DNA of 63,889 nucleotides, filler included, from Sphacelaria rigidula (lineage: Eukaryota), in assembly GCA_964200075.2 (NCBI GenBank). It is 9 parts of 9 records of this genome, joined end to end, with 100 filler letters (N's around TTAATTAATTAA, not from the genome) between each part and the next. Parts side by side here need not be neighbours in the genome. Positions count along the whole stretch, not along the records: positions 7,112 to 14,122 come from CAXNAA020016967.1; 8 more parts are not named here. One strand, 5' to 3'. Positions 231 to 57,003 of the stretch are shown piece by piece. The stretch's first letter is position 1. The number at the start of each line of letters is the position of its first letter. The translations under genes were made by a program, and so were the position numbers. The notes under the pieces were generated by a model. The model did no database searches. It saw only the letters and a list, made by a program, of their open reading frames with translations, and was not told the DNA's origin.

Positions 231-540
231 CGCTGTCGTGGAGACAATAATGGTCCGACTGTCGCCATCTGGGTGGAGAGAACGAGAGTTCGATTCCCGT
301 TACGTTGGGTTTTTTCTTCGTAAAATCTGATTCCCACCGTGGAAAGCGTGAGAACGTGAGTAAACGAAGTAGTCGACTGAGTCTGTTTGGCGTGAGTTGA
401 CGTGGTGCGAGAGTGCTGACCCAATCAGCAAGACCAAAAGGCAAGGCGTGTACCGGGGGAGAGGTAAGTTGAACCCTTGAGACCACGGACTCATCTCGAG
501 GAAGGACAGGAGTTCAAAGTGCGGCAAAAAAGAAAAGAAA
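231..540 (+). mobile_element. tRNA-derived SINE, family A
   Basis: Homologous to 38460-38758 (-). Head has A-box-like TGG..AATGG and B-box GTTCGATTCC (~288-297); A-rich 3' end. Confidence 0.7.
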
Positions 541-1842
541 AAGAGATGAGACAAGAGGCGCAGAATATGTTGATATTTCGAATGCTGTTCTCGGAACGTT
601 TTTTAGTCGAAAACCCAGGCGGTGTGAGTTTTGCCCTGGCACCGCAAACCTCACGAGGGCGCCCGTGTTGGCGTTTCATTTACTCGTGGCCCCTTCCTTT
701 CACGCACCGTGTACAAGCACCAACGCTCGACCAATAAACCATTGGCGCAAGGCCTACAATACGTGTGCCCGCGCTGCGCAATAGCAGCAATACAAACGCT
801 TCACCTGCCGTTTTGTTGGGAGATGAAGGGGAAAATAAAGAGTGATTCAATGTTGTGTGTGTGTTGTGTGTGGACTTTTGTTTCCAAACTAGCTAAGAAG
901 TAGTACCCTGCTGTAAGCATGTGTTTTAGCCCTACGTTGATCTTGCTTGTTGACTTTTGAAGGTGTAGTACGCTGCTATAAGGATGTGTATCAGCTCTGC
1001 ATTCATCTTTGTTGATGACGTGATGAACAGGGGACGCTGCACGAGATTCCCCTGTAATACTACTCGAGAAAGACACGCCTCTTATTGTGTGTTGCTCGTG
1101 CGGGTGCGTATGTTCGTTCGTGGTGTGTGTTCCCCGCGTTCCGATTCCAGGTGGCGTTGCTGAAGCTCAAGCTTCGGGAAGCTGGAAACTCTGGAACGTG
1201 ATCCAGACACGAGAGATACGATGCGCACCCCTATCTTTACAGCCATCTATCATTTCGTGACTACCATATGCTTTTCGAATCCCGTTTTCAGCCCACCTAT
1301 GGTTTACTTCGAGTGAGGCGTTGCGATATACGGCAATCGATCGTCACGCAGTGAAGCGAGACAGCAGCACGGAAGAAGACTCTACATGCATCCATCCATG
1401 GGTAGTAAAGCACGACCGTATGGCAGGTGTTGCTGCGACCCTTCCTCTTTGTGTACACCGTCTGCAGCGTCGCCCCCTTTCAGTTCTTGTTCCCTTTCTT
1501 TTGTTTTTGTAGTGATGGTTTTCGGTAAGTGAAATGAAATGCGCAGACCCGCTCCCAGCCTCGGTCGGTTGCAGTGAGTTTGAAGCTCTTCTAGTCACGC
1601 CAGACTTTTTGCGATGCAAAATGGAGATTGAGAGGGTAATCTCTTCCACGGGGATAATATATATTTTTTATACTGCCAGCTCCTGGGCTGAATGGACCCT
1701 CGCCCACAGAACGTTGGCGCACGTCGGACAGCTCATGAGCTACCTGAAGATCCCTTCTTATTAGTGTGCTGATTCAGATCATGAGCTAGCTTATTTCGCC
1801 CCTTTTTCCACATTTACTGCCTACAGCGCTGGACGCCTATTT

Positions 1843-3696: not shown

Positions 3697-5775
3697 AACA
3701 GTGGATCCTAGAAAATGGGGTTCATAAAAAAGTGAGGATGAAGTGACATTTCTCTTTTGCAGGGAAGACGAGAAACACTTGCGACCGAGCGAAGCCATCT
3801 TCCCCCCCAAAATGTCCGCAGCAGTCAAGCAGCTGTGGCTAGGTGCACCTAACGAATGCGATGTACACGCGTGTCGAGGACGATATCACCAGAGAGGAAG
3901 CTCCTCGCCCGTGTCCTTTGTGTGTCCTCGCTCGGTGATTACCAATCGCTTTAGAAACTGGCATCATCGATGTTATTCTACCAGCGTGTTCCAATTTTTG
4001 CATTTGCCAGAACATCGAGATGCGGAGAGATTCCGTCGTCTCTTCTTGCCTGCCGCCAACGCGAAGATCGATTTCTCTCTGCCTCTCCTTTTGGACAGGA
4101 CGTGCCTTTGTGCGCTGAAAAACATGTCGTTGAAAAATAGGTCAATGTTCCCGTCACCACTACTACTGTTCTCTGCATCCACACAATTCAAAAGGAAAGG
4201 TGGCCGGCGTAGCAACATGTACGAAATTTCGGAATCTCTGTAAAAACAAAATAGTTCGGTATTTTCAAGTACATGAACATTACTAAAAAGACTCTACTGG
4301 TCTGAGGAACTGTGGCTTTCCTGTCCTCCCGCCAGGTATACAAGAAGGACGACAGAGATTTTGCAATCGCATGTAGCACTCGCGGGGAAACATATAATAG
4401 GGTTTCCTCTACGAAATTCCGCGTTTTCCAACCTGCAAACCGTTTGATGCCCGTTGCTTCCTGATAAGAACGTTAAACCGTCAATTTCTGTTCCGTTTTG
4501 TACTGATGGCGGTATCGCCATGCCAGGAAAGGTTGGTATTGCTGTTTTACAGTATCTTCGCACGTGTGGACGGACCCAAAGCGGCCACTTTTCCTCAGAC
4601 CAGTAGAGTCCTTTTAATCATGTTCATGTGCTTGAAAAAAACGAACTGTTTTGCTTTTACAGAGGTTCCAAAATTTGGTACATGTTGCTACGCCGGGCGA
4701 CCTCTATGCAAACGCCAGCCAGTCTAGTAGAGCGACGAAAGCTAGCTATGATCGGGTTTGCCTGCCGTACTGCCGCCAGCGTTGCTTGAAAGCCACAAGA
4801 CCTTCGCGGTTGGCGGTTGATGGCGTGAGTATCAAATGCAACGACCGGTGGTTGATCACAGAGCACCCTTGTTCTTCGTGGGTTCATATCTCGCCCTCGG
4901 TGGTAATGCGTGACCTCATCACATCGGAGTATTTCTTGAAAGCTACTGTACCGAGGTGTTCACGCAGCCAGCGCGCATGCTCCAGATCGCAGCATGGACG
5001 CACCCCTCTGCACCACGCTCGCAACGGGTGGATCACTACCATAGGTATCTTTTTTCACTCCGCATGTCAAGAAGGTCTCCACAAGTGTTTGATGTCTCAT
5101 ACACACACAACCCCCCCCCCCCCCCCAACTGGCGTCTCGCACGCTGTTGTCGTTGGGCACCCAGAGGGTCGCTCACATACACGTCGGGTAAAATCAACGA
5201 TGAATAACACCCCCCAAGTCCAAGTTGGATATATCGATTGTTTTCACCACACCACCGCCCTTGCTGGCATGTGTGTGACAGAGAACAGTAGTGGCGGTGA
5301 CGGGAACATTACCCTATTTTTCAACGACATGTTTTTCAGCGCACAGAGGCGCGTCCTGTCCAAAAAGAGAGGCAGAGAGAAACCCATATTCGCATTGGCC
5401 ACAGGCAAGAAGAGACGACGGAATCTCTCTGCATCTCGATGTTCTGGCACATGGAAAATTTGGCACACGCTGGTAAAATAACATCGATGATGCCAGTTTC
5501 TCGAGCGATTGGTAATCACCGAGCGAGGACACACAAAAGAAACGGGCGAGGAGCTTCCTCTCTGTCGTTGCTTCTCTCTCTGGTGATATCATCCTCGACA
5601 CGCATCTACATCGCATTCATTAGGTACACCTAGCCACAGCTGCTTGACTGCTGTGGACATTTGGGGGGGAAGATGGCTTCGCTCGGTCGCAAGTGTTTTG
5701 CGTCTTCCCTGCAAAAGAGAAATGCCACTTCAACCTCATTTTTGAGATGTACCCCATTTTTCAGGATCTGCTGTT
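3697..5775. mobile_element. Long-TIR foldback element (non-autonomous)
   Basis: 3697-4175 is the inverted copy of 5280-5775, and 4200-4320 is the inverted copy of 4580-4700. About 580 bp of extra sequence (4700-5280) interrupts the right arm. No transposase motif seen. Confidence 0.8.
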
Positions 5776-6949: not shown

Positions 6950-7011
6950 GGGGGGGTACTCATGTACTCATGATCATGCATGCCATAGTCATCAGACCAT
7001 TGACCTCGCAT
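6950..7011 (-). mobile_element. SINE family C, 3' tail (contig end)
   Basis: ...GGTCAATGGTCTGATGACTATGGCATGCATGATCATGAGTAC, then a short stutter and a C-run, on the minus strand. Confidence 0.85.
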
Positions 7012-7111
7012 NNNNNNNNNNNNNNNNNNNNNNNNNNNNNNNNNNNNNNNNNNNNTTAATTAATTAANNNNNNNNNNNNNNNNNNNNNNNNNNNNNNNNN
7101 NNNNNNNNNNN
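7012..7111. other. Artificial 100-bp contig spacer (N + TTAATTAATTAA + N). Same spacer at 14123-14222, 21233-21332, 28343-28442, 35453-35552, 42563-42662, 49672-49771, 56781-56880
   Basis: Identical spacer with stops in all frames. Contig lengths are 7011, 7011, 7010, 7010, 7010, 7010, 7009, 7009, 7009. Confidence 0.98.
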
Positions 7112-8106: not shown

Positions 8107-8453
8107 AACACTGTTGTCGTCCCATCTCTTCTGGATGCCGGTCTACACCTTTAGGTATATGTGGGCGCATCAGCCGGGATCACACAGGAGGAAGGTCAAC
8201 ACAGGAGGTTATTTTTTTTTGCTTGTTTGAGTTTTCCACCTTCCTTCTGCGGTGCTTGCCTTCTATATATCGCGAGGGGGGTGTAGCAGTCCCTTTCCCT
8301 CGTCGACCATTAAGTTGACTTTTTTCTACCCACGACATGGTCGCTCTCCACTGTTAGGCATTGTGCGAGGAAAAATCCCGGACTGCTCCAAGATTCGAAC
8401 CCACGACCCAACCGTCAGAAGGCTTGGAGGTTACCGACTGAGCCACGGGGGCG
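8107..8453 (-). mobile_element. tRNA-derived SINE family B, full length
   Basis: Minus-strand head GCCCCCGTGGCTCAGTCGGTAA...GGGTCGTGGGTTCGAATC (A and B boxes, tRNA-Lys-like). Body shared with 14362, 35929/37244 and 58508. Confidence 0.85.
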
Positions 8454-8469
8454 AAGCTGTATCCATGAA

Positions 8470-8912
8470 TAACCCTTGGACCGTGATGCGGGTAGTCCAT
8501 CTGGATCACGCATACTTTTTTCAAGTGAAATTGATGCCGATTGCACGGGTGATCTACCCTCGCGGTGAAAGGGTTGATCTCTTGACCGCGAGGGTAGATC
8601 ACCTGCTGAATCGGCATCAATTTTCACTTGAAAAAAGTACGCATGATCCAGATGGACTACCCGCACCGCGGTTTAAGGGTCAACCTTGGAACGCGAGGAG
8701 GGTAGGTCACCTGCTGAATCGGCATCAATTTTCACTTGAAAAGCTTTGATCTAGGTAGACGACCCGCACCGCGGCCTAAGGATTAACCCTTTGTCGGAGG
8801 GTTAACCATTTGACCGCGATGAGGGTAGGCCACCTGCTGAATCGGCTTGATTTCACATAAACAAAGTATATGTGGTCCAGATGGACTACCCTCACCGCGG
8901 TCTAAGGGTTAA
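8470..8912. mobile_element. Array of ~100-bp piggyBac-like (TTAA) MITEs
   Basis: Four units with CCCTT..ACCGCG / CGCGGT..AAGGG ends separated by TTAA or variants (TTGA, TCAA); orientations +,-,-,-. Confidence 0.8.
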
Positions 8913-9507
8913 CAGAACCTGCTGTCAGAGTAGAACCATTTTCACAGGACACTGGCGCGTAGACCCGCTCGTCCAACAAACTACATTTTGAATCCACCCA
9001 CAGACAACAGAGTCGGCATGGAATATATCACTCGGGGAGCGACGATTGCCTGCGGCTAACGTGACACAACGCATGAAAGTATACGTGGTATCAAGTCAAA
9101 ATCAAACCTTAGTGTTTAGTCAACATCATCCATGCCGAAAAGGAAATTGCATCGTCCGGGAGCGTGTCGCGAGGGAGTAGGGAGCGAGGCAGTACGGTGA
9201 GCAGAGCAATGCTACGGTAAGAGTGCACTTTTTGCGCAAAATCTTGTCTGGTTCAGGGACTCCTCACGATTTTGGATGCATAAGAATATGGGTCAGGGCA
9301 TCTCCGTTTGCAACTTTATTCAGCATATTTCTATTTTAGCACATTGGAAGAGTAATCCTGGCGTACTCTCACATATTTCATAACGTCGTGTTCCGCATGA
9401 GATGAAGGGCTCCTAACAGAATATATTTGTGCACCCCTCCCGTAGCATCACTCAGCAAACACGCAGAGACGAATCACCACGAGCTGGATTGACAGCCTGT
9501 GTGTAAT

Positions 9508-9760
9508 TAGACCGCGATGCGGGTAGTCCATCTCGACCACGCACACTCGTTTCAAGTGAAATTGGTGCTGATCAGCAGGTGACCTACCCTCGCAGTCAAA
9601 GGGTTAACCCTTACACCGACCGCGACACCGCTAACCCTTACACCGCGATCACCGCTAACCCTTACACCGCGATGCGTGTAGTCCATCTGGATCACACACT
9701 TTTTTCAAGTGAAATTGACGCCGATTCAGTAGGTAACCTACCCTCGCGGTCAAAGGGTTT
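9508..9760. mobile_element. Two tandem piggyBac-like MITEs, same family
   Basis: AAAGGG|TTAA|CCCTT junction at ~9601-9610; the left TIR (TAACCCTTACACCG) is stuttered three times. Confidence 0.8.
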
Positions 9761-11418: not shown

Positions 11419-11601
11419 TGCAAAGAAGGATGGCGAATAAGCACTCTCGAGCTCGACTCCACCGAAACTTTAGCTGAGTTGATTGTACAGCAGTAGAGGA
11501 CGGGACTGTGGAAGTACGAGGGCGGGTTCTTGTCCTCAAAACAATCGACACGCATGCGGCAACATGTCGCCCTCCACCCCCTCCAGGATTTTCTCCTTTA
11601 A

Positions 11602-12103
11602 GGGTTGGCGTCGGTTAACGACGACGCTGTGAAACACGCCACTCACTGCGTAAGCTAGGCACTCGGCTTACCGTTTTTATTTCTGGCTTTCGTTTTTTGG
11701 CGGTGACCATGATGGTGGTCGACTTGGATCGTATTGTGCGGGGCGAAGAACCTCAACTCCGCGCAATGGGGATGATCATACTACGTAGTGTTGAGACGAT
11801 AAGATACCCAGGAGGCGGTGTGTAGCCCGTGACTGTCTCTGGAGGTGGCGAAACCAGAAAATGAAGAAAGTCATTCGAGGCTGTTAAGCACGTGCAGGAT
11901 AATCAGTACTCTTCGCACCAAACAATCTCAGCAGGGTAAAGCTCACCCCTCAAGCAACTCGCCGAACACATCTCGGCATTTATCGCTTGGTGATTGATTG
12001 CGAGCCTGGTCCGGCGAAATTCGGCATGCCTCGTCCCGGCATTGTAGGGATGCAAAGTCAATGGTCTTGCGACTATGGCATGCAAGATCATGAATAGTCC
12101 CCC
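11602..12103 (+). mobile_element. SINE family C, full-length copy with TSD
   Basis: Same 5' start as the copies ending at 31898 and 35110, plus a LINE-like tail. Flanked by CC(C/T)CCAGGATTTT(T)CT at ~11580-11594 and 12099-12114. Confidence 0.85.
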
Positions 12104-12156
12104 AGGATTTTTCTTGGAATGTTTTCGTGGAACGAATTTTTCGTTACCTCAGGTCA

Positions 12157-12579
12157 TCATCCATTCCCGTTACCGGAGTATCGTCTCACAGTATTTCGCC
12201 GTTTTTTTATTTTTATAGCAAAATAGACGCCTCCGCGAGAAACGGTAGATGATGGCAAATATCTTAATTTCGCCCCGAGCTTCCGCGCACGTTGTGCATG
12301 CAGCTGCGGACCTGAAAGCATCGCCCAAGTGGAATGAGTGGGCTCGGAGATGATCGAGCTGTGTTTATATACTGACAAGCAGTTCCTCTCGCAAGTTGCA
12401 TCGATAATGGTGCTGTCTGCTTGGAGCATTTGCAAAATCCGTGCAGCCTGGGTGAACACCATCACCCCCCCTCCGTCGAACCTCACTTCCGGTGTCACCG
12501 CAGAGCACGGCGCTCGCATGACGCCACCGGCAGCGACTAGGAGGGTGTTTTCGCCATCTAGAGAGGTCAATCTTTCCAC
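12157..12579 (-). pseudogene. Decayed Tc1/IS630-like transposase fragment
   Basis: VTPEVRFDGGGVMVF resembles Tc1 PTVKFGGGSVMVWG, and GAKLRYLPS resembles the GxxLxYLPPYSP motif. Confidence 0.45.
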
Positions 12580-13296: not shown

Positions 13297-14222
13297 AAAA
13301 CCCCCCCGATATAAATAGTACAAGTGTGTATATAGCAATGTGATTGAGGCGTACCTACACCACTTCCTGGAAACAGCGGGACCGTAATAAATCGGCGGCT
13401 CGCGTTGTACAGGAGCGAATGCACAACTCGCACTTAGTGTCTGTCCCGAGCAGGAGAAGGAGTTCAAGTTAGTAACCTGACATCCGGAACCAAGTAGCTA
13501 ACGTCTAGCGTGATTCGAGATTTCCGGCGTTGACATGGACATAGATTTCGACTTCTCAATTGTAATTGTACTTGAGTATCACAATAGGACGTCGCGAGCG
13601 CTACATACGACAGAGAACATGTACCTCCGTCGTCACGGGAGGCGAGAACATGAGAACAGCAGGGTAGATGGCATACTCGATCAGAAGTGTTGGTGTTCAA
13701 CTCCCCACCCGACCACCCCCCTGTACATAAATTGCGGCAGATGTGGAGGATCCCCAGGCCTAATCATGGGATGCAACGTCCGGGCGCCTGCGGAGACGCC
13801 GTCCGGGGCAGTCCGAGCGTCACATACGACACCAGGACCGATCCCGAGGTAAGAGCATTTTCAATTCACTTTTGTAGTAACCCTGTGAGCTATCGAAGGT
13901 GATGATCGCACGCTCCTCATCACTCTCTTTCAGGTGATGACTGAGGCTTTCGAACCAAACGCAGGGCGTGAGCATGCGTGGGTAATATATATATATACAT
14001 ATATATATCTATACTTGTATATACATGTGTGCGCGAGAACCCCCGACCCTGACTGTTGAAACGTTAAATATTGCACAGAACTAAGTTCTTGCACACATAC
14101 GCATTGTTGCATGTCATGTGGGNNNNNNNNNNNNNNNNNNNNNNNNNNNNNNNNNNNNNNNNNNNNTTAATTAATTAANNNNNNNNNNNNNNNNNNNNNN
14201 NNNNNNNNNNNNNNNNNNNNNN

Positions 14223-14336
14223 TTGAGTGCGAGCCTGGTCCGGCGAAAACCCTGCGTGCTCCGTCCCGGCTTTGTAGTGATGCGAGGTCAATGGCCTTAT
14301 GGCTGTGGCATTCATGATCATGAGTACACCCCCCCC
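14223..14336 (+). mobile_element. SINE family C, 3' part (contig start)
   Basis: Shared body and tail ending ATGAGTACA+C8. Confidence 0.85.
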
Positions 14337-14361: not shown

Positions 14362-14636
14362 TCCTCACACAAAGCCCAACAGTGGAGAGTGACTGTGTCT
14401 TGGGTACACAAAATTCAACCTAATGGTCGACGAGGGAAGGGGGCTGCTAAACCCCCCTGGCGATAAAAAAAAGGGGCAAGCACCACAGAAGGAATGTGTA
14501 GAAAAATAAATAAATAAAAACTCCTCTGTTGGCCTTCCTTCTGCTGTGTGACCCCGGCTGGTGCGCCCACATACACCGAAGAAAGGCGTATAGCGGCGTC
14601 CGGAATACATGGGACGACAACACGACACACACACAG
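14362..14636 (+). mobile_element. SINE family B, 5'-truncated
   Basis: Aligns with 58600-58862; CA-rich tail. Confidence 0.8.
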
Positions 14637-15861: not shown

Positions 15862-15906
15862 AGGGGTGTACTCATGATCATGCATGTCATAGTCATAAGA
15901 CCATTG
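15862..15906 (-). mobile_element. SINE family C, tail only
   Basis: 45-bp tail with degenerate TSD (GGCGGCAGGGG / GCAGCCAGGGG on +). Confidence 0.7.
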
Positions 15907-17166
15907 TAGCAGCCAGGGGAGATTAACCGAGTGCGGGTATTCGGACCATGAGTGCTGTCGCCGGCATGTATTAATTCGTTGTATAGATGCTTCTGTTCCG
16001 GGTTCAACGCGACATGTCATGAAATAAAGCTAAATGACAGCATGGCAGTCAAACTCTGCATTCAACACTTGTTGTTCCTTCCGTTCGCTGGTATGGCCTC
16101 TTTCGCCCATGTTTTTACCAAAACTATGATCGAAGGTGCTATCTTGGTTGTTTTTGTTTTGATAGCACAGGGCCCACAGATGGGGTCAAGACATTTTACT
16201 GGCACGATTTTTCGACCAGTCAGAGCCTCCCGATGTACCAAAATGCGGCGTCATTTCTTCAAACAGATGAGAGAATCGAGTGGGACTGGAGTGGTCAAAT
16301 AGCCGTGATTGGCCCACACATTGCGCCGCTGCCAGTCAGACAGCTGCAGTCATCAATCGCTTGGGATACAGAAGCTCCGTGCTGGCTCAGTTTGCTTGCC
16401 CCAACCTGCAAGCGTCCGCCTTGCGTGTCTTCTCCGATCACAGCACCCGACTACAACTGAAGTACCAAAGAAGACGCAACACACAGCTGCACAGTCGTCA
16501 CGTAATCGTTTGAACTTTGTGTTCAGCACTTTGATCCCACCCCAATTCTGTGCAGACGGTAACACGGCATGCAGCAGTATAGCTGTTCAGGCGTTCTCCA
16601 GCGCACATCACATCATGTTCGTCGTAAAGTGTATGGATGCACAACAGCACAGCGACAACTACAGCATAGAAATGATGGGTGTAGAAAGCGCCTCGTTCGT
16701 TTGACGGAAGACGAAACAGCCAACACACGACAGTGTGCAGACAGCACTGCGTGCCGACAAACACAATATGCTCATTTTCTGTAAAGACAAAGGCAGCAAA
16801 GCAAAGCAACTGACGTAATCCAAGCGGAGACGAAGGTTCCCTGCTTGTGTATATCATCTGTGCGTTAACTGTTCGCGCTCGTCGAACTTCTATTTTAGTG
16901 GTCTCTCTCCCAAGTCCTGTTGTGGGCATTGCACCCCGAGCTTCGCAGTTCTTCCTGTGGGTGCGGGTTCATGTACTCCCCATTAACTCCAATGAAAAAG
17001 CTCACCACGCGGTGAACAACTTCCCGCGTGTTTTTTCCTTCATTGCAATCACCATCACCTATAATGCCGCACTTTCCTACCGTCACCCGCCCTTGGATAT
17101 GATATAATTCAATGAAAACCAAGAAGACAGGCAAACTTGAGCTTGTGCTGTCTGTGCATGGACCAG

Positions 17167-19851
17167 ATAGGCGTGGGCGAGTGCAAGACTCACCTCACGG
17201 TCTGGTGGGACCTCCGCATGGATAAACTCCGGAAGATCGTGCGCGATCGCGGCGGCATTCTTCCCGCTGCTGAGGCCGACCAGAGCCTCGTCAACGCCGT
17301 CATGCAAGGCCAAATCAGAGGACTGGCCTACGACCACCGCACGGCCGCCGTCTACTCCGTTCAACCGGGTGCCATGCCCCCGCCGAATCACCCGGGCCCT
17401 CCGCCCAGTGTTCAGGCCGTCACCCCTATGCAGCTACAGCCCCCGCCGGCTCAGCAATTTTTCCAAGCCCATGGAGGTGGTGGAAGCGCCGCCTGGGACG
17501 GCAGTGGTGGCGGCTGCGGTAGGGGGGTTGCCGGGGGCAGGATAGGGGGTGCGGGAAGCGGGCGTGTGAATACTTGGGGGAATTTCGACGTGGGGGGGGC
17601 GAGAGGCAGGGGAGGCATGCCCGACGGAATTTCACAGGTATATCCAGCGGAAACACCGCCCATGAACGACCCGCGACTCTACGGCCCGGTGCACCAACAG
17701 CATACTGGGGCTGGTGGCTCCGTACAACCACCACGACTTGCTGTCCAGAACGGACCTCGACTGTATGGCCCTGGCCAACAGCCATTTCCGTCTCCACCTC
17801 TCGGCGGTATTGGTGGCGGTGGTTCAGCAGCCGTTTGGGGGGGCACGGGTGGAATTATCGCGGTCGATACCCACGGTGCCAAAACAAACGAGCTTGGCGG
17901 TGGCGGTAGCGGTAGCACCCAGCCGCACGCCCCCGAGAGCTTCGGCGGCCCTGTTCGTGCGAAGCAGGAGCAAAGTGCAAGCATGCGCCCGGGTCAAGTC
18001 GTCCAGGATCCTACGCGCAGCCCTATCAGTGATCGCGAGCTCCATGCAGGAGCTGTCGCTTTCAAGTCGTCCCCGTTTCGTGGAGGTGGCGGTGCCGGCG
18101 TGAACAGCGTGCCTCCGCCGGGCCCCGCATTGAGCCCTGTTGTGGCGGGATCGCTGGCGGATCCAGGAGTTGCAAGGCCAAGGATGGGCGACAGCTCGAC
18201 AGATTTGATGACTCCGGCGATGATAACCGCGAACAAGCAAAAGCAGCCACGCGCGACGACGCGCAACAACGCGCAGGGTGCTGCAGCGTCCAAGGCAAAG
18301 GAGCAAGCCACCGGGTCCACCACTCGCGCAGGCCAGGAGCCGAACCGGTCACCGCCACATCAGGACCACCGGGACCACCAGCACCAGCACCGGCAACAAA
18401 ACCAACAGCAGCAGCACGAGCTGCACAAACAGCAGCAGCAGCAGTGGCAACACCGACAGCAGCCGTTATCACCAAACGACATTCCTCGGAGTGGAGACGC
18501 TGTTGATCAAAACGGTCTTCGTGGATTGCCGAAGGTCGAGAAACAATCACAATCCGGTGCAATTTCGGGCAAGCTACAGGCGAGCGATTGCCCCGCCTCA
18601 GTCGACGTCCGTCCCGCCGATGCCGGAGGCGGGTCATCCGCTCAGACTTCTGAAGCGGCGGGTGACTACGAGGCCGGCTACGAAAATGGGCCCGGAAAAA
18701 TGTTTGCTGTTGAATCCGCCTCGGTAGCGTGCGTTGGTGACGTGAGCCCTCGGAAGGAGTTTTTCCTGAAAGCGAAGGCTACACTCCACGTGACGTCGAA
18801 ACTTTTTCAGGCTGTGTCCTCTGCGGTCATGGGAGAAGAGGACTCAAACACCGCCTCCGCAGACCCCAACCCACCCCCTGATGCCGCTGTTGCGTCGAGC
18901 GTGGCCATCTCCAGCACCGATGGTGACGGAGGTGGCAGTAGCGGTGGGAAGTTAATATCTTGTACCAGCCCCGGGTTCTCGGTGGCTTTATCGCCGCCGC
19001 TGACAGAGACTGTGCCTACCGTGGCATCCAAATCACCGCAGCTGGATGCCGAGGATGCTCTGAACATCACGTTCGGCTCGCTGCCAGCTCAAACTGCTGA
19101 CACAGCTGCAGTGACGAAAAAGCCCGTCATCCCGTCGGCGGCGGTTGCGCCGGAGGCGGACGCGGTAGTGGTAGCGCCGGCAGAGTCTCACGTCGACCTT
19201 GCGACAGCGAAACCAACTGAGATCGTCGCCGCGGGCATGGGGGCCCAAACAAAATCTCCCCGTATTACTGCCGACCCCGCCGACGACAAAGAGACCGTAG
19301 CTGCCGCAACTAGCGAGCCTCCCGCCGTCAACGCCCCCCCTTCCATCTCGAAAGAAAACGACGAGATTCATGGTCCCATCTTTTCCGCAGCCACCGCCGC
19401 GACCACCGCCATGGCCGGCGCCACTGCAGTTGACGTCGGCGCGCAAAATACCCGCCTTCCAGCGGCAACCACCACCGGCGCCGCCGCTTCCCTGGCTTCC
19501 TCTACCACCTCGTCTCCTGTCACCACCAGCACGAGCCCGACCGACACCAACTCAGCGCATTCTACTGGTGCGCCGGATACCGAAACAAATTTCTTGCTGG
19601 TTCACGACCACGAGAGTCTCACGAATGCAATTTCGGCGCTTGGCGGCAGCCTGAGTGCTGGCGGTCAGTCGGCGGGCGGCGGCGGTGACGGTAACAACGG
19701 ATCGAGCGATGGCGGCGGGGATAAGGTTGGCGAGGGGCGCGGAAAGACGCGCGGGTTGAAGGAGGTGGTGTTGACCGCAACCGGTCCTGTGGCTATCCGG
19801 CTGGACGGAAGACGAATCGGGGACCAGCTGGGTATCGTATCTACGGTGCAG
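17167..19851 (+). CDS. Large internal exon: small N-terminal domain, ~750 aa G/P/Q/A/S/T-rich region, then the start of a DnaQ-like 3'-5' exonuclease domain (EXD1/Egalitarian-like)
   Basis: Inside the 999-aa ORF. Acceptor CCAG|ATA, donor CAG|GTGAGT, phase 0. Ends FLLVHDHESL...VAIRLDGRRIGDQLGIVSTVQ. Confidence 0.8.
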
Positions 19852-20489
19852 GTGAGTCCAGTTTTATTTATGAATTGCGAAGAATTTTCGTCCGTTCATT
19901 TTCGGGTTTGGATCTGTCAGTCGGCTAGATGTGCTTTCGGTGTCTTGGAGCGATCCTGTTCCATGCGCCTAGCCTTGGTTTACTTGGCTACTCGATTTCC
20001 GGGGGCCTGCACAAAAATGAGTTCGAACGCGGCTCCTTTGGCTCGACTCGCCGATAAAGAGTGCACCCGAAGTTACATCAACAGTGCTAGAGAGCAGCTC
20101 CTTACTGGGCACGTGGCAGCCATCGCGTCACCTTAAGCACCTCTTCCCAAGGACTCCGCAGCCGCAAACCGCGCTCGTAAGCGTGCACGTGTGTGTTTTA
20201 TCACTGAGCACCAAGATAGCCGGTCCTTCAATTCCACGGAGAAATGACGCATGATTTTTTGCTTCTATAGGTGTTCGATTCGTGTGACGAGTGCACTCAC
20301 TCTCTCATGTGATACATTTTGCGATTTGATTGATGTCTCTGATTTCTGTACATTCCGAGTGTTTTGCTGCGAGACAGCTCTTCTGGTGTGACAGGTTGTC
20401 ATGTCTGATATGGCTGTTATTTTGTTGATCCCGCCACTCTGCCGGCTGTCGTGGCGTGTTTGTCGTACTTTGAACTCAAACGGGAGAAG

Positions 20490-20612: not shown

Positions 20613-21332
20613 GTACTCGTACTTTACGGCCATTTCGCCTGAAGATACCGCGTAGTACCCGAACATGGCAACGGTGGGGTATCTTACTATGGGTACCCCG
20701 AGTCTGCAGTGTACTTGCAATACCGATTACCGCAGGGTACCTGGGGTATCGAGTTCCAAACATACTGAGTACCGGGGGTTACACCGAATACGGACACCTC
20801 GAAATTCCCGTACTACACCCTAACCACATTCGTGTACTTGCTACTCCAGTGAAGTCCTCGGGTTTGACAAAACGCGAATGTTTCTTACTGTTTTTTTATT
20901 TTACCCCCCGCCCGAATTTTTACCGATGAGGCCTGTGTATACCCGTCGTTGGTGTCAAGATCTTCGGCAACCTCGTGTGGTGGTTCCCACTAGGTGTTCA
21001 CCCCGTTAGAAACCGTGACCAAATATTTGAGTGCATGATAATTGGGTCAGTTTTTTTCCGGACAAAACTTCGTTTTCCTAGCAAAATAACACACTAGTTG
21101 GCGCTGCTGCGTCTCGTGGAGAGAATCGCAAAGCTGTACCTGGGGCTTCTTTCTTATACGTGATTCCCCCCCCCCCCTCTCTCCCACATACAAGGAGGAA
21201 CGGGACGTGCTAGAGGGGGAAATGCGAGACGTNNNNNNNNNNNNNNNNNNNNNNNNNNNNNNNNNNNNNNNNNNNNTTAATTAATTAANNNNNNNNNNNN
21301 NNNNNNNNNNNNNNNNNNNNNNNNNNNNNNNN

Positions 21333-21467: not shown

Positions 21468-22239
21468 GCTGAAAATCTATGTTCACGTTCTGGCTGCGCT
21501 CTATCGAGAAACTCAGACACCTTTTTTAGTAACCGACAAAAAACACGTTTTAACGGTTCTCTTCCACTCTAAAGGTCTTCACCTCGATCAAAGCACGTCC
21601 TAATTTACGACAGGATTCAATGGAAGAGGAAGGCACGCAGATGTCGTGGTTGGAGTCTCAATACGGACCACCGAAGGCGATTTGCAGTGCTACGAGGTGG
21701 GCCCATGGAGTCGTTCAACGATAGAGGAGTTGCAAACACCTCTTCTTTCAAAACGGAGAATGACGCGTTTCCTCTGCTATACTAGCTTGTTCGACTGAGC
21801 ACGCAGGGGGGGGGGGGAGGCTGAACCCCCTCCTGCTCCCTTCCATCGTTAAACGTGTTCATTTGGACACGAAACGCTCGACCACAAGTTGTTGGCAGGA
21901 AGGACTACAGACGGGTGATGGTTCAAGACGTGAAATAATACAGTCGATAGGATGATAGTCGGGTGTTAACTTCCAGTGCTACTGCACGCACTAGGTATGA
22001 CCGTTTTGCAGCATACCTTCTTGTTTATTCGATATATACACGGACATATACATATATATATATATGTTTATATGTATGGTCCCCACCAGCTGCTGTTGTA
22101 GATCTTGTCGTCACGGAAGGAAAAAAGCGGACGCCTTCAGGGCCAGGGAACGGCCAGAGGTGTACACATGGAAAACAAATCAAGGGGTGGAATCGTGCTA
22201 CTACTCCCCCCGACCATCCCCACCGTAAAATGGTGAGTC

Positions 22240-22560
22240 ACCCATGAGGCAAGGTGTAACCCATGGCTGCCAATGAAAGTGGCGATACTATAATATGAAG
22301 CAACTCGTCCGAGCCTGTCATCCAAATGCAAGATAATGAGTACGCATCGGGCCGTACAATCTCAGCAGGATGCAGCTTACCCTACCGACTCGCTAAATAC
22401 ATCACGGCGCTTCGCGCTTGGCGATTGATTCCGAGCCTGGTCCGGCGAAAAGCCGGCATGCTCCGTCCTAGCTTTGTAGAGATACAAGGTCGATGGTCAT
22501 GTGACTACGTCAAGCAAGATCATGAGAATCGCCCCCGCCCGCCCCCCCACCCTTCCCCCC
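22240..22560 (+). mobile_element. SINE family C, 5'-truncated
   Basis: Shared body and tail followed by a C-rich tract. Confidence 0.8.
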
Positions 22561-28333: not shown

Positions 28334-28448
28334 GCCAAACACNNNNNNNNNNNNNNNNNNNNNNNNNNNNNNNNNNNNNNNNNNNNTTAATTAATTAANN
28401 NNNNNNNNNNNNNNNNNNNNNNNNNNNNNNNNNNNNNNNNNNTTCATC

Positions 28449-31368: not shown

Positions 31369-31419
31369 CTATCAATCCGAGTACGCGTAAGCCGCGTGCA
31401 CGTAAGAGGGTAGCAACGA

Positions 31420-31898
31420 GGGTGGGGTGGGTGTACTCATGATTCTGCACGCTAAAGCCGTGGGACCAACGACCTCGCACCCCTACAAAGCTGGGGCGGA
31501 GCACGCCGGTTTTTCGACGGACCAGCCCTTGCAATCACCAAGCGCGAAGCGCCGTGATGTGTTCGGCGAGTCGCATGAAGGTGAGCTGCGTCCTGCTACG
31601 ATTGCTCGGCCTGGAGCGTACTTCTTATCTCTCCATGTGGCAGCCTACAATGAGTTGCTTCATCTTCTGGTATCGCCGCTTTCAGAGACAGAGCCACGGG
31701 TCACACTGCTTCATGGGTATTTCACCATATAAACACCGCGTACTACGAATATCCATTTTGCGCGTGATTGGGGTTCTCCACCCCGCACAATACGATCCAG
31801 CTCGGCCAGCACCATGGTTGCCGCGAAAACACGGCCACGTGGTTCCAACCTTACGCAGTAAATGGCGTGTTTACAGCATCCTCGACAACCGCGCACCC
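31420..31898 (-). mobile_element. SINE family C, full-length diverged copy (intronic)
   Basis: Aligns along its whole length with 11602-12103. Confidence 0.85.
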
Positions 31899-32082
31899 GA
31901 AAGGCCAATCAGTGTTCAGATAACCCTTCCCTGGTCAGAACTAAAACGTCGTTGCACCGATTGGTGCACATGGTAAAAAGACGGCTGTAGGCGCCGCAAG
32001 TCAATTGACAAACGCGTCTCCATCGGGTTTCAATCTTCAGTTGTATGGTATGTTGTACACATGGAAGGAAACACCAACTCAC

Positions 32083-32188
32083 GTTTTGACCCCCTCCGAA
32101 ACGGCCAGAGAAAGCGCGGCTCAGAACGCACTCCATTGCCCAAACGAGGTCCTCCTTCGTAACAGCCCGTCCGGCTCCTTCCGGACAG
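32083..32188 (-). CDS. SET-domain methyltransferase exon
   Basis: VTKEDLVWAMECVLSRAF (WA...V.SRAF motif) with GTGAGT donor. Acceptor uncertain by a few nt. Confidence 0.85.
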
Positions 32189-33358
32189 CTAGCTACTAGG
32201 CTCTGTTATGCACGTGAAGCAAACAAGAAACAAAAACCACGACGCACGAATGCTTTGTCATTGCTTCGGTCGACGCACAGTACATCGCCGCACGAAACAC
32301 AAATACTGGTACCAACCATGGCGGCCACCACCAGTGATGACGTGTGTGTGTACGTGTGTGCATGCAGTGCACATCTATTCATCTGCCTATATGTGTGTGA
32401 GTGTATTTGCGAAGGTGTGTGTCGACGGGGGCACTGCAGTAGCACGAACGCTGTGGTGCGTTGATTCTTCCGCACGGAGCATGACCTGCACCTTGTTCGA
32501 GGGCAGCGTGCGATACTGCACCATACCCGACGCTGATTCACGCTTCCGAGTTGACCGTTCCTGCAATCAAATCTCAGAGCAGCACACCAATGAGCAACAT
32601 AGCATGCCGTCGGGCGTCAAATACCCAAACTACTGTCACCTTGACTTTCGTTTCCCTGCAATATTGGACCCGTTTCTGAAACCGCAACTGCCACCATCGC
32701 AGTATGTAAGGCATCGCACGATCGTTTTCTCTACTTCCCACGGCTCCCCCTCCTGTGCTGTGCCCACATCCTACGGCTGCCATCCGTGCTCAAGTATCAG
32801 ACGGGTAAATCAACAGGCGTTAGGATACGGGCACTTACGGAGGTACGATGAATGTGCTCATTACAGGGCATAGTTGCCGTCCCCCGGCTGCTGAAACGAC
32901 ACGCGATATGATGTCCATGAGCAGATCAATATTTGGCGGTAGCAACTAACGAGCAAATATTGGTACCAATGTTCGGCGTACTTTGTTAAGAGTACGCTGC
33001 AAGCTGAGAAATACTCGCCAAAAATCTTCTGGTAAGACCTTTCGATCGCGTCCTTACACCGCAACGGAGATGTCGCCGATTGCGGATGAGAGCGAGGTGG
33101 CTCGTTTTGGCGGATGCAGAGAAGGTACCGCACGGCACCCAAAAGGCAAGGTCGGGTATCGCTCAACAGCTAGCCGCGTTTGGGAATTTTCTAGATCGAG
33201 GGGGCCGATGGTCAGATGCCGCGCCCATGCCAAAACAGATAGAAAAAGGTATTTTCAAAACCACATTTTTGCGACTACTTCATGCACGCCAAGTGGGAAC
33301 CGACACATCGAATCGCAGGATATCGATAACGGCAAATCTTCTCGGAAGCACAGGAATA

Positions 33359-34550
33359 GGGGGGGGGGGCTACTCATTTGTTGCTTGCCCTCGTCGTCTG
33401 ATCATTCGCCATGCACCCATTTTGAGACGGAGCACCGTTCCTACTCCTAATGGAAACACCCCCAACAATTGGGTGCTCACTCCGTTTCTTCCACACATTA
33501 CAAAATATACATTTTACATATCTCATTCCCGTCCTGTTTCGTCGTCTGTGGCCACCATCCATCTCCTAGTATAGCCATCGTTTTCTCTACTGTCTAATGC
33601 ATCGAACGATTTCATGCCACCTTCGTTCAAGTCCTGCATTTCCCCCTCGAGCACGTCCCGTTCCTCATCGCATACTTCACATTCTGCCACTACATGAGTT
33701 CTACTCTATTGCTTTTCCACAGGAACAATTCTGTGAATCTGATTCCTCCTCCTTTCGACGACTGGTATATCTTTCTTCTTTCTGGCAGGTCCAAGGTCCC
33801 CAACCGAAATCGCAGTTTCAAACTTTTCGCCGCGTCCGTTGGGCCATGCAGATATGTTTTCATCCCTCTCCCCTCTCTCCACCCCCCGTATATATTCAGG
33901 TGTTTTTTCTCGTCTATTTTCCGTCTGAACCGTTCTTTTCCCTTATTTCTATCACGCCTCTTACTTTCATCTTGTACCCCCCACCTTTATTTATGGACAG
34001 TATTTCGTCTCGGTTTTGTTCTATCTCCTTCCATAGTTTCTCGACTCCTTTATCCCACCTTATTCCACCCTGCCCTTTCGTACTTTTCTTCCACATAGTC
34101 CTATCAACTGTGGCTGGCAGTCTCTTGATGTGCATGTTCTTCACGGTATATTGCCATTTCAATTTCTCATAACTCTGATTGTTTCCAGTGGGTGCATTCT
34201 CAACTCTGCTCTCAATCCTATTACTCGTCGTTTTCGAGCATCCAAGTATCTTCTTGGCTGCTGCCATCTGCACTGTTTCCAGCTTCTTCACCAACTTCGC
34301 GTTCCCCTCCCATACTTCTCCTGCATATTCCAGCTTTGGTACAATCACGTCCATCAGGATGCATCTCTTTATCCTAGTGTCTAGGTGCGGGTCTCTGAGG
34401 ATCACGTTCATTCTGACAATCATTACCCCTTTCTATCACTTTGTTCATGTGTGCATCCCGAAAAAACTTTCTTCATATCTCTACGTCAAGGTATGTATAC
34501 TGGTATAAGATCGGCAGTTCCTCTTCTCCCCACTTCCATTTGAACCCTAC
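33359..34550 (-). mobile_element. 5'-truncated, frameshifted LINE (RT C-terminus, Cys/His segment, oligo(C) end)
   Basis: LPILYQYTYL, then PKLEYAGEVW..LETVQMAAAKKILG (non-LTR RT thumb), CSCG..THVVAEC. The last frame ends ..TTRASNK* followed by GTAG+C11. Confidence 0.88.
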
Positions 34551-34580
34551 TGGGTTCTAATATTCGTTACATACAAGTTT

Positions 34581-35452
34581 GGGGGGATGGGGCGTGTACT
34601 CATGATCTTGCGTACTGAAGTCATCTGACCATTGACCTCGCATCCCTATGAAGCCGGGACGGAGCATGCCGGGTTTTCGCTGGACCAGGCCCGAACTCAA
34701 TCACCGAGTTAGGGATAGCGCTAGGGGTGAGCGCCGAAATAAAGTTCGACGAGTCACATGAAGGGTGAGCTGCATCCTGCTACGATTGTTGGGCCCAAGC
34801 GTACTAGTTATCTTGAATTTGGATGACAGCCTCCAACAAGTTGCTCCATTTTTTGGTATGGCCACTTCCAGGACAGCCACGGCTTACACACTGCCTCCTG
34901 GATGTCCCACCATATCAACACTACGTAGTATGATTATCCTCTTTGCGCGGAATCGAGGTTTTTCCACCTCACACAATATGATCTGGCTCGACCACCATCA
35001 TGGTTAAGTCACAAAAATCGCAAGCGCGCAAAAAAAAGGGGCAATCTGCTTGACTAGCTCACGCAGTGAGTGGCATGTTCTACAACGCCATTGCCAACCG
35101 ACGCCAGCCCAACAAGGAGTTCGTCCCTACAAAGCCGCGAAGGAGCACGGTCTTCGACGGACCAGGCTCGCAATCAATCACCAAGAGCGAAGCGCCGTGA
35201 TGTGTTCTGGCGAGTCACATGAAAGGGGAGCTGCAACCAACCTGCCAAGATTGTTCGGCCCGAGGCGTACTGATCATCTTGATTGCGGATGACAGTCTCG
35301 AATGAGTCGCTTCATTCCTGGTATCGCCACCGCCAGAGACAGTCACGGGTTACACTGCTTCATGGGTGTCTCGACAGTTATTTGAGGAACGGAGGGGGGG
35401 GTACTCATGACCATGCATGCCATAGTCATCAGACCATTGACCTCGCATCCCT
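34581..35452 (-). mobile_element. Cluster of SINE family C copies (full 34581-35110, partial ~35120-35375, tail 35395-35452)
   Basis: Each aligns to 11602-12103. Confidence 0.85.
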
Positions 35453-35928
35453 NNNNNNNNNNNNNNNNNNNNNNNNNNNNNNNNNNNNNNNNNNNNTTAA
35501 TTAATTAANNNNNNNNNNNNNNNNNNNNNNNNNNNNNNNNNNNNNNNNNNNNGTTTCTTAAGTTTGTCTAAAATTTGAGGCTGATTTTCTTACTGACACG
35601 TTTTTTACTAGCGGGCCGGTACTGTGGGAGGCGTACATCGGCGCTAAATGAACTTGAAAGCCCAGCAGGAGTGGTGCAAGAGTTTTGGGTTTACCCAACG
35701 GGGGTGTAGCAGGGTTGAGCAAAGAGCGCACACATTTTTTCTGTCGATGCATCGGGGCTTTGTCCTGGCGTACACACGAGAAGTCGACCGAGTATTTAAA
35801 TTCGAATGTGGAATTTTGATGTGCGGTGCTCAACTCGTATAAAAGTTGGGTTTGGCAGTGACAACGAAGATGCTTCCGCGAGGTGTGTACATAGGAGTAT
35901 GAGATTCGATTTTGGGGCCGTAAAGGTC

Positions 35929-36071
35929 GGTCGCCCCGGTGGCTCAGATGGTAACTTTACAATCTTCTGACGGCTGGGTCGTGCCTTCGAATCTCGGGGC
36001 GATCTCGGATTTTTCCTCACACATTGCCCAACAGTGGAGAGTGATTATATCGTGGGTACACGTAGTGCGGC
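35929..36071 (+). mobile_element. SINE family B, 5' half, split at its internal TTAA
   Basis: tRNA-like head; the body resumes at 37244. Confidence 0.8.
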
Positions 36072-37243
36072 TTAACCCTTACACCACGAGATTAGTCTTG
36101 CTGGACCATGCATACTTTATTTCACTTGAAATTGATGCCGATTCAACCGAAGACTAACCTCGCGGTCTAAGGGCCCTTAGACCGCGAGGTTAGTCTTCGG
36201 TTGAATCGGCATCAATTTCAAGTGAAATAAAGTATGCATGGTCCAGCAAAACTACTCTCGCGGTCTAAGGGTTAACTCTTAGACGGCGACCCCCCCGCTG
36301 GTAGACTGAGGTAGACACTCCTCTTTTTGAGTTTAGAATCATTCCTGTGTCACAACTCAAAACGTCTTCTCTACGGCGGAAGGGACCGGGAATGCATAAG
36401 AGGCACATAGTTGTGAGAGTCATAATACAGACGGTGGTGTGGTTGTCGACCACCTGATTATTACCCTCGTATTTTCGCTGTGCAGTCTGTAGTGTATCGT
36501 GCCGCGGCTGCACGTGCGGTCTGCAGAGTACTGGATTTCACAGTTTTGAACGTGCCGAGTGTACGCAGCGTGCGTTTAGATATCGCACTATGACTACCGC
36601 CGCGAACGCTCCTGACTACCGTAGAGCAATTGCCCGGCGATGGCGGTCGCCTCACCGTCGAAGTGCTTGTCTACATACTCGTGGCCGCCGCTCGTGTGTT
36701 GCGCTATGACGTTTCACACCAGATGGAGGTGTGGAGCTAGTAGGGCGCCCAGGCAGTACTGAACAGACACACTGCACCGAAGATGCTCAATTACCTCTTT
36801 TTTTCTTATATAATCTATGGTTGATTCGGTTTGATGAAAATGAGATTCGAGGGTAGACGACGAATGTGTCTATAGTACCAGCTGTCTACCTCTACTGAAA
36901 CAAAAGTGCTCATTTTGACGACTGTGATTGGTCAGAATGGTCATCCCGCGTCACTCGGGCCTCGTGCACGGCTTATAATTTCTCGCGAGAAACTTCCAAA
37001 CACCCATGGTTGACTCCGTGAGCTTCTCCGATGCTCCGCGGAGAGACAACTCCCCCCCCCCCCGAGCCCCGGAAAGCCCCTCGGGACTGTCAGCCTGTAC
37101 AACTGTTCCGAGGCGACGCTCGTCGTTTAAGGGTTAACCCTTGAACCGTGGTGCGGGTAGTCCACCTGAAAAACGCATACTTTTTTCAAGTGAAAATTGA
37201 TGAAGATTCAGCAGGTGACCTACCCTCGCGGTCTAAGGGTCAA
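36072..37243. mobile_element. Nest of TTAA elements: MITE(+), MITE(-), 858-bp non-autonomous element (36276-37133), MITE(+)
   Basis: TTAA at 36072, 36272 and 37134, TCAA at 37240. The 858-bp element has TIRs CTCTTAGACGGCGA / CCCTTAAACGACGA. Confidence 0.8.
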
Positions 37244-37445
37244 TGGTCGACGAGGGAAAGGGAGTGCTGGACCCCTCTCGCGATAAAAAAGAAGGGCAAG
37301 CACCGCAGGATGAACGTGGAGTACTACATGTAAAAAAAAAATCATATTTTGGCCTTCCTCCCGCGTGACTTTGGCTGGTGCATCCACATATACCGAAAGG
37401 TGTAGACCGGCGTCCAGAAGAGAAGGGACGACAACACACACACTA
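37244..37445 (+). mobile_element. SINE family B, 3' half
   Basis: TGGTCGACGAGGG.. through the CA tail; continues 35929-36071. Confidence 0.8.
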
Positions 37446-42511: not shown

Positions 42512-42562
42512 GGGGGGGGGGGGGGTACTCATGATCATGCATGCCATAGTCATCAGACCATT
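42512..42562 (-). mobile_element. SINE family C tail (contig end)
   Basis: G-run + TACTCATGATCATGCATGCC on +. Confidence 0.85.
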
Positions 42563-42662
42563 NNNNNNNNNNNNNNNNNNNNNNNNNNNNNNNNNNNNNN
42601 NNNNNNTTAATTAATTAANNNNNNNNNNNNNNNNNNNNNNNNNNNNNNNNNNNNNNNNNNNN

Positions 42663-42811
42663 GGGGGGGCGTACTCATTTGTTGCTTGCCTTAGTCGTTC
42701 GACCATTGACCACGCATCCCTTTCGAGACGGAACATGGGGGCAGGGAGTATACTGATTTGTTGCTTGCCTTAGTCGTTTGACCATTGACCACGCATCCCT
42801 TTCGAGACGGA
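42663..42811 (-). mobile_element. Two tandem LINE 3' ends
   Basis: Two ~70-bp copies of CCGTCTCGAAAGGGATGCG..GCAACAAAT, each followed by a C-rich tract on the minus strand. Confidence 0.8.
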
Positions 42812-43691
42812 GAAAAGGGAAGGGGAGGGGGGGGAGGCAAAAAGGTGAGGAAAAGAAAAGAGAAGAAAATAAGAGAGAGCGAACAAAAGATGAGGACGGA
42901 AGGACGAACGAAGAACGACGTGGAAGGCAAGAAGAAATGAAAAGGACGGAGGAAAATATCCGAACGACGAAATCATTATCAACAGGGGTCTGTGACGAAA
43001 ACACGCCGTACGTTGAGTTGGTAGTGATGATATGGATAATGACAAGGGGCACGGAGATTCTGGAGGGTTCTGGATAATGACCGGGGACACGGAGATGGTA
43101 TCTGCAGGTCTAGAAAGCTGGTGCCCCAGAAGGGCACTCCTGAATATTGAGAATATTGTAAAGGTTGACAACTGACTCTGAGGTCAGTAAGACTGGGGAG
43201 TCCCTCAACAGCAGTGATCCAGCAGTGCTTACACTGGTTGGCGTCACAATATCGATATTAGTGCTAGTGCTAGTGCTAGAAACAAAGGATTTCGGTAGGA
43301 GTCTGGGAGCTGTGGAAACCTGATACACCACGGACGCGTGGAGAGGGTTTCAGCTGAGGCAGCTGCAGAAAGGCGGCTGGCCTGTGATTGATCCAGACTG
43401 GAGACTTGCTGAAGCTGCGTGCAGCGGGAGTTTGGAGGCTCCTACGACTGTGTGGTGCGGCGACGAAGCAAGGAAAGTGCAATTCGCGAAGGTCCGCTGA
43501 CCTGCAAAGGTTCGCAGATAGCCGGTTACAGCTACAGCTATGGCGACACCCGTGGTCATGCGGGGAGATCTTTGACCTCCCCAATGTGGGGATAGGTACT
43601 CAGAGAGTGCATCTCGCACTTTATTTCGAAGTACTTTAAGTACAAGAAGCGTGTGAAGCACGCTAACGAAGGGGGTGCTGTGCGGCATTAA

Positions 43692-45485: not shown

Positions 45486-45665
45486 ACCTGATGACTCGAT
45501 GCCGTCCGAATCTGTTGTCCGCCAACCGCAACGAAAATACCTTGAGGCCGAAGACGCGGATGTGCAATATTTCAAGTCGGACGCTGGTGCTGCTATCTTG
45601 GACAATGAAGGCGTGTGCATGTGCGTGGCCGAAACGTTTTGTGAATTCCGAGTTCTGACAAGCAG

Positions 45666-56880: not shown

Positions 56881-57003
56881 CGAAAACCCGGCGTGCTCCG
56901 TCCCCGCTTTGTAGGGATGCGAGGTCAATGGTCTTAATCTTATGGCATGCATGATCATAAGTACACCCCCCCTGTAGGTCAATCATGCATGATCATAAGT
57001 ACG
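56881..57003 (+). mobile_element. SINE family C 3' part with re-duplicated tail
   Basis: Tail+C7, then a second CATGCATGATCATAAGTAC. Confidence 0.8.

Follow-up and report, generated by a model that had tools for sequence, protein, structure and literature searches.

Family C of Sphacelaria rigidula, an abundant short retroposon with a poly(C) tail and a head not demonstrably derived from SRP RNA

The dispersed repeat termed family C, present in the Sphacelaria rigidula assembly GCA_964200075.2, is quite probably a ~510-bp non-autonomous retroposon copied in trans by the reverse transcriptase of a LINE. A first-pass annotation of the window—the whole stretch of 63,889 nt analyzed here—had described it as an abundant SINE with a head resembling the Alu domain of SRP (7SL) RNA. 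An abundant, short and non-autonomous retroposon is indeed what we found, but SRP descent of the head gained no support: judged by its sequence, this 60-nt segment is not demonstrably derived from SRP/7SL, tRNA or 5S RNA.

Results

The window strings together nine contigs of ~7010 nt, nearly equal in length. They are separated by spacers of the composition N44-TTAATTAATTAA-N44 (7012-7111, 14123-14222, 21233-21332, 28343-28442, 35453-35552, 42563-42662, 49672-49771 and 56781-56880), whose recurrence every ~7110 bases implies that the contigs are unrelated and that the N runs are not assembly gaps within a locus. The string looks like a set of size-sorted unplaced contigs. As the contigs are separate, features on different pieces are unlinked; copy A of family C sits on a different contig from copies B and C.

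Aligning copy A to the window by BLAST revealed 11 family C loci, comprising three full-length copies, three truly 5'-truncated ones and five cut by contig joins. The full-length copies span about 470-520 bp. Copy A, the one featured in the first-pass annotation, occupies 11595..12098 on the plus strand, as delimited by self-BLAST and a three-copy alignment, with its start set by a shared CCTT..GGG and a TSD. Copy B (31434..31905, minus strand) is devoid of ~20 nt of a T-rich stretch described below, and copy C (34597..35117, minus strand) contains a T8 and a T5 run; both have a C-rich tail, and no TSD was found for either. Copies B and C, which have no recognisable TSD, are old, as family C copies are only ~73-77% identical to each other by BLAST. 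The truncated loci are a piece at 22230..22560 (plus strand; BLAST match 22230-22525) that begins at about element nucleotide 205 and carries a C-rich tail of ~40 nt, a short tail copy at 15863..15906 (minus strand) with a weak TSD beginning CCCCTG, and, counted in the same class, an internal piece at 35124..35372 (minus strand; about element nt 205-449) that abuts the head of copy C. Contig joins cut the tail copies at 6965..7011 (minus strand), 14223..14333 (plus strand, followed by C8), 35395..35452 (minus strand, followed by C8), 42519..42562 (minus strand, followed by C14 and (TCCC)n) and 56881..56958 (plus strand, followed by C7). That five contig ends fall inside family C is a sign of its repetitiveness. 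Searches with nhmmer and blastn-short returned no head in the window beyond those of copies A, B and C. The sense-strand open frames of copy A are all short (≤68 aa).

The abundance of the family extends to public sequence data. We compared the public contigs of four runs over positions 11450-12250 using summed word depth, which is not equivalent to copy number. In all four runs, summed depth reached 0.6-2.9 million in the best-conserved head and tail bins, as against 22-128 in the single-copy upstream flank, placing family C ~10^4-fold above its flanks in these contigs—an order of magnitude rather than a copy number. The head bins (11612-11665) were about as deep as the tail bins. A pattern derived from the element body hit one locus among metagenome contigs, a 5'-truncated, headless copy with a C-rich tail (contig L001, 1454 nt, positions 470-640, minus strand), so that family C or its host is present in an independent public data set. 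The head pattern had no match in the metagenome contigs, and the body pattern had none in the genome and viral contig collections searched.

Inspecting the element ends refined the boundaries. The first-pass annotation had three copies of ~500 bp beginning at the same point; the three full-length copies were confirmed, but alignment revealed a further ~7 nt upstream, CCTT..GGG, common to all of them. In copy A, the true 5' end accordingly lies at ~11595, ~7 nt before position 11602, directly after the 5' TSD copy (CCAGGATTTTCT; 11583..11594, plus strand), which is itself preceded by C-rich sequence. At the other end (12099..12114, plus strand), a short C run leads into the 3' TSD copy at 12102-12114; the two TSD copies agree exactly over 10 nt, and over about 12 of 13 positions with one extra T. 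Since the shared CCTT..GGG and the TSD place the start at ~11595, the 'closing stem' of the fold proposed for the head is not 5'-terminal. A clear TSD is found in this one of the three full-length copies, with none recognisable for the other two.

The 3' end of family C reads ...CATGATCATGAGTAC, often followed by AC and then by C's. At each of the ten loci that retain the 3' end, a run of 4-14 C's lies no more than 30 nt behind it, and the C fraction behind the 3' ends ranges from 0.23 to 0.87, compared with 0.249 for the window. Likewise, the loose-end consensus of the public contigs continues behind position 12093 with GTACAC and then ~24 C's. Joints in these contigs lead from a tail through a C-rich spacer of varying length into the next head or body, and new family C copies often lie directly behind the C tails of older ones.

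A second short family, a mini element of ~70 nt, shares the tail core of family C. Its copies (47501-47569, plus strand; 42663-42735 and 42751-42812, both minus strand; 33361-33435) all begin at the same point (CTCCGTCTCGAAAGGGA...) and end in ...ATGAGTACG plus a C run. In the copy at 47501-47569, which shares the family C tail core, the terminal C run is C9, and a 12-nt TSD, CCCCGGCTAGTG, recurs exactly on either side (47489-47500 and 47570-47581). The mini element may represent a retroposon that consists of a tail alone, or else the partner LINE's own tail. A further stretch of ~70 nt of nearly pure C at a contig end (28265-28335) has no family C tail before it.

Collectively, family C exhibits the features by which LINE-dependent retroposons are recognised: a conserved 3' end and tail, 5' truncation, and TSDs of variable length (copy A and the mini element). 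The C-initial TSDs, the C tails and the tail/C-spacer/copy joints fit target-primed reverse transcription at C/G runs. In such a scheme, the endonuclease of the partner would nick at C/G runs, and the G-rich bottom strand would prime on the C tail of the element RNA. By analogy with the Ectocarpus family RTEX-N1_Ec32, the partner would be an RTE-type LINE; we infer the RTE-X assignment from this likeness. The window contains no autonomous LINE, so the partner and its tail are unseen, and Pfam annotation of 18 long open frames of the window found nothing but a zinc knuckle and integrase domains, both belonging to an LTR element.

This LTR retroelement (42985-46846) is bounded by direct repeats of 264 bp with 96% identity (42985-43247 and 46583-46846); its frames encode a gag zinc knuckle, Integrase_H2C2 and rve, with no reverse transcriptase detected by Pfam in the frames tested. 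Several other features populate the window. A second dispersed repeat of ~350 bp, with 76-81% identity, occurs at 8112-8454, 14362-14622, 37242-37440, 58510-58860 and 35928-36061, accompanied by units of ~100-150 nt in direct and inverted orientation (8470-8913, 9507-9759, 36101-36246 and 37119-37243). An inverted repeat of ~500 bp and 87% identity (3697-4185 versus 5775-5270, in the region 3697-4316 and 4584-5775) encloses an inner inverted pair (4198-4316 versus 4703-4584), and the whole (3697-5775) looks like a foldback or terminal-inverted-repeat element. Two tandem units of ~230 bp with 81% identity lie at 53798-54258. An open frame of 1006 codons (17116-20136, plus strand), of low complexity and rich in G, P, A, S and Q, has no Pfam domain and is probably a host exon.

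With respect to the proposed Alu-type fold, the head segment of copy A (11602..11660, plus strand) can be drawn as a three-way junction with TGTGA, though fold, pair counts and Rfam give it no support. Individual elements of the original proposal were reproducible. The motif TGTNR is present in all three copies, as TGTGA in A, TGTAA in B and TGTAG in C, and the majority letter of the public contigs converts copy A to TGTAA (11631 G>A). A closing stem and two hairpins can likewise be drawn, with 88.1% of 42 cells paired as opposed to 21-43% with slid partners; however, this pairing was scored on the same three sequences that had given the fold, which is thus post hoc, and a shuffle control of pairing is uninformative at three rows. 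None of the 15 proposed pairs features a double change, in a set of three heads only, and the variation at these pairs is one-sided and mostly to G-U, as decay transitions in copies would give. Helix 4 comprises only four secure pairs.

A descriptor built from the proposed fold (helices of 4, 6 and 4 bp plus TGTNR) found two of the three copies, A and C, along with one unrelated site, while copy B failed it. Across 20 dinucleotide shuffles, it occurred 2.15 times per 126 kb, and looser versions 12.5 and 40 times per 126 kb of shuffled sequence. The geometry is hence uncommon, but it was defined after the fact. Energetically, the proposed fold is the minimum-energy structure in none of the three copies, and the minimum-energy folds of the three heads differ from each other as well as from the proposal. 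The 59-nt heads had z-scores of -0.34, +0.90 and -1.70, and the majority-corrected head +0.52, or -0.33 with the loop letters of copy C. Adopting the proposed fold, the corrected head attained -11.7 kcal/mol, compared with minima of -13.9 and -17.8 kcal/mol. The folding energies of the head equal those of shuffled sequences and reveal no excess.

Database searches for a parental RNA were negative throughout. At gathering thresholds, Rfam matched nothing in the whole window, and ARAGORN predicted no tRNA gene in it. With the threshold relaxed to E ≤ 10, neither copy A nor the region of copies B and C (31400-35500) matched any SRP, tRNA, 5S, Y, vault or U-snRNA model. Each head was also searched alone, within 101-113 nt and under the laxest filters: the comparison with Rfam SRP models that the first-pass annotation had suggested yielded no match for any of the three heads at E ≤ 10, and the tRNA, 5S, Y, vault and U-snRNA models gave none either, with the weakest row at 9.0 bits. 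The positive control was an archaeal SRP RNA whose gene is found by RF01857 at 204.7 bits: its initial 75 nt, submitted in isolation with unchanged settings, scored 37.4 bits (E 5.6e-8). These settings can therefore report an Alu 5' domain on its own, although this in-family control proves that the method works and says nothing about its reach. Conversely, a covariance model of the head, searched against three archaeal SRP loci plus the window, recovered only its own three copies above the E=1 criterion and none of the three SRP RNAs, a weak test across so huge a distance.

Promoter elements were equally inconspicuous. Within the first 200 nt, the best ungapped matches to the box A and box B motifs of 7SL (taken from PMC7245038) had 2-5 mismatches, within the range of 500 random 200-mers. 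The first-pass annotation had noted that no tRNA B box is visible, and tRNA-type boxes fitted no better than in random 200-mers. Applying a further criterion of PMC7245038, we recognised by eye no counterpart of the 3' half of 7SL (helix 5) after the ~55-nt head motif, which ~20 nt separate from a T run. Thus, with no Rfam SRP match at E ≤ 10, no double changes, no excess folding energy and no boxes, the equation of the head with an SRP Alu domain was not upheld.

Other structural readings of the 5' region were considered and rejected. A tRNA- or Y-RNA-like interpretation, in which the 5' GGGYTGG pairs with CCAGGTT, has no model match. An HDV-like ribozyme head matches no ribozyme family, and the 5'-terminal 7-nt pairing with a partner ~65 nt away misfits such a structure by eye. 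For a hammerhead ribozyme, as in a Penelope-like derivative, no family was found at E ≤ 10 over copy A or 31400-35500.

Behind the head of copy A lies a T-rich stretch (11674..11698, plus strand) that comprises T5 (11674-11678) and T6 (11693-11698) and resembles a polymerase III terminator. All three copies have a T run of T4-T8 at element nt 77-81, of only T4 in copy B, with a further T5-T6 run at 99-101 in two of the three; their remaining ~400 nt are free of T runs of 4 or more. Public contigs leaving copy A at 11661 continue with ACCAGGTTACCG and then T9-10 in all four runs, with an agreement of 0.62-0.65. Others join 11661 to 11747 (8-11 contigs per run), and there may be a minority subfamily without the T-rich stretch. 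In systems where termination has been studied, RNA polymerase III stops at such T runs. Consequently, with T runs at nt 77-105, a polymerase III transcript starting from the head would end before the tail that the reverse transcriptase needs. Judging from the sequence, the full-length mobile RNA would probably stem from polymerase II or from host read-through; alternatively, the minority subfamily free of the T-rich stretch would be the active one. In the strict sense, a SINE has an internal polymerase III promoter and no terminator before its tail; family C has no recognisable boxes and T4-T8 in three of three copies. The data support calling it SINE-like in the loose sense only, that is, as short, abundant and non-autonomous.

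Discussion

The closest known element to family C is Ectocarpus RTEX-N1_Ec32, compared by description only. According to the portion of a 2025 transposon survey used here (PMC12477816), this non-autonomous family of ~600 bp is the most abundant single family of the Ectocarpus genome, with >6000 copies and 2.48 Mb; it shares its 3' end with LINEs, its 5' part was left unplaced by the authors, and it was grouped with LINEs because SINE status requires a polymerase III promoter. RTEX-N1_Ec32 is probably the unclassified 'Sower' repeat of the 2010 genome paper, since the 1.2% or ~2.5 Mb of the Ectocarpus genome given for Sower in an earlier review (PMC3145265) match the 2.48 Mb. At this level of description, RTEX-N1_Ec32 and family C are alike in size, abundance, LINE dependence and an unplaced head, whereas the poly(C) tail and C-run targets that characterise family C go unmentioned in that portion of the survey (PMC12477816).

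SINE1 elements (Alu, B1 and hagfish SINE1-1_EBu) are, like family C, short and non-autonomous and have TGTNR between two hairpins near the 5' end, and the hagfish element is RTE-mobilised, as may be the case for family C. The account of SINE families in the part of PMC7245038 drawn on here describes SINE1 heads with boxes A and B that strongly resemble 7SL along ~96 nt and add ~44 nt from its 3' end. Unlike these, family C has no SRP model match, no boxes and no recognisable 3' half, and it contains internal T runs. According to the same part of that source, 7SL heads have arisen in just two known cases, Euarchontoglires and hagfish, while some RTE-dependent SINEs—two bird families, for example—have heads of unknown origin. 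The two RTE-type bird families resemble family C in that such a head precedes LINE-derived sequence and the chimera is uniform among copies (PMC7245038, as far as that part goes); they differ in being vertebrate, and the likeness is one of description, tails left out. As for the Alu 5' domain of SRP RNA itself (helices 2, 3 and 4 with a U-turn at UGUNR), it shares with the head the placement of UGUAA between hairpins inside a short stem, as depicted in the part of PMC11581171 consulted. The linker measures 7-8 nt in the family C head and 4 in the Rfam Archaea_SRP consensus, and the head further departs from the SRP Alu domain in its helix 4 of 4-5 pairs, in loops unconserved among the three copies and in a fold that is not energy-favoured.

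Where, then, might the head come from? Descent from the Alu 5' domain of the host SRP (7SL) RNA, or mimicry of that domain coupled to SRP9/14 binding, would make family C a 7SL-type SINE of third independent origin, with no precedent outside vertebrates. The ordered succession of H2, H3, TGTNR and H4 that can be drawn in copies A and C, the majority TGTAA, the rarity of the fold descriptor in shuffles and the hagfish precedent of a 7SL head on an RTE-mobilised SINE (PMC7245038, in the part used) all speak for it. They are outweighed by the lack of any SRP match at E ≤ 10 for all three heads, alone and in context, where the control reached 37.4 bits; by 0/15 pairs with a double change among three heads; by z-scores of -1.7 to +0.9 and a fold at -11.7 against minima of -13.9 to -17.8 kcal/mol; and by a helix 4 with just four secure pairs. 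Furthermore, no 7SL box A or B was found, the 7SL 3' half kept by Alu, B1 and the hagfish SINE was not recognised here by eye, T runs follow after ~80 nt, and, in a weak test, the head covariance model missed all three archaeal SRP RNAs. Weighing the fold geometry against these failed tests and the rarity of 7SL heads, we deem SRP descent or mimicry very improbable, and a 7SL origin of the head unsupported rather than disproved. Less far-fetched, if still rather unlikely, is that an undescribed family of small polymerase III transcripts supplied the first ~85-95 nt: such an RNA would have been captured by retrotransposition, oligo-U end included, with template switching joining it to a body of LINE origin. 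Such small-RNA chimeras are the accepted origin of SINE heads (PMC7245038, same part), T9-10 stands right behind the ~85-nt module in four of four runs, with T4-T8 in three of three copies, and a hairpin is predicted just before the T run in both copy A and the majority-corrected head. However, nothing in Rfam matches, whatever the family, no gene that could be its source was seen, versions of 79-91 nt fold no better than z-scores of -0.62, -0.15 and +0.30 (+0.6 to +1.05 for the corrected head), and the T runs may be a mere T-rich linker. That this ~85-nt head with its U-run end is a captured polymerase III RNA with an SRP Alu-5'-like fold, recruiting SRP9/14 or the ribosome, strikes us as a distant prospect; if true, a brown-alga-like genome would have as its dominant repeat an Alu analogue that arose independently and is moved by a LINE using poly(C) tails.

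Somewhat better placed, yet doubtful, is a bipartite internal-deletion derivative of the partner LINE, with the head representing the LINE 5' end and the remainder its 3' part. Derivatives of this kind are common for RTE-type LINEs (PMC7245038, in the part used), and such an origin would explain why the head bears no small-RNA signature. The Ectocarpus family, likened to family C by description, argues against it, having RTE-X similarity at its 3' side only, with the 5' side unplaced (PMC12477816, in the portion used). All these origins concern the head of a retroposon. A solo LTR, MITE or satellite unit, suggested by the length of ~500 bp, which suits a solo LTR, and by the occurrence of head-to-tail joints, is scarcely credible for family C. 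LTR elements usually generate TSDs of 4-6 bp, and those found here measure 12-13 bp. Moreover, the ends of copy A, read directly, are not inverted repeats, truncation affects just the 5' side of copies, which keep their homopolymer tail, and the head-to-tail joints contain C-rich spacers of varying length. A LINE-dependent retroposon is our preferred reading of family C.

A sound 7SL origin would have provided the first such SINE outside vertebrates, going by the part of PMC7245038 used here, and the tests reported above give it no support. The question of the head reaches beyond this genome, as the portion of the 2025 survey used here (PMC12477816) also leaves the 5' part of the most abundant repeat of Ectocarpus, the model brown alga, without an assigned origin. 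Family C is an element of an ordinary kind, a LINE-dependent short retroposon, that is unusually abundant and neatly defined and has an uncommon poly(C) tail. A literature search on poly-C-tailed retrotransposons returned nothing about such elements by title and abstract, and this tail type may therefore merit description once the partner LINE is known. What is useful here is the anatomy of family C, with its exact ends, its tail of C's, its targets at C runs and the T runs that speak against polymerase III.
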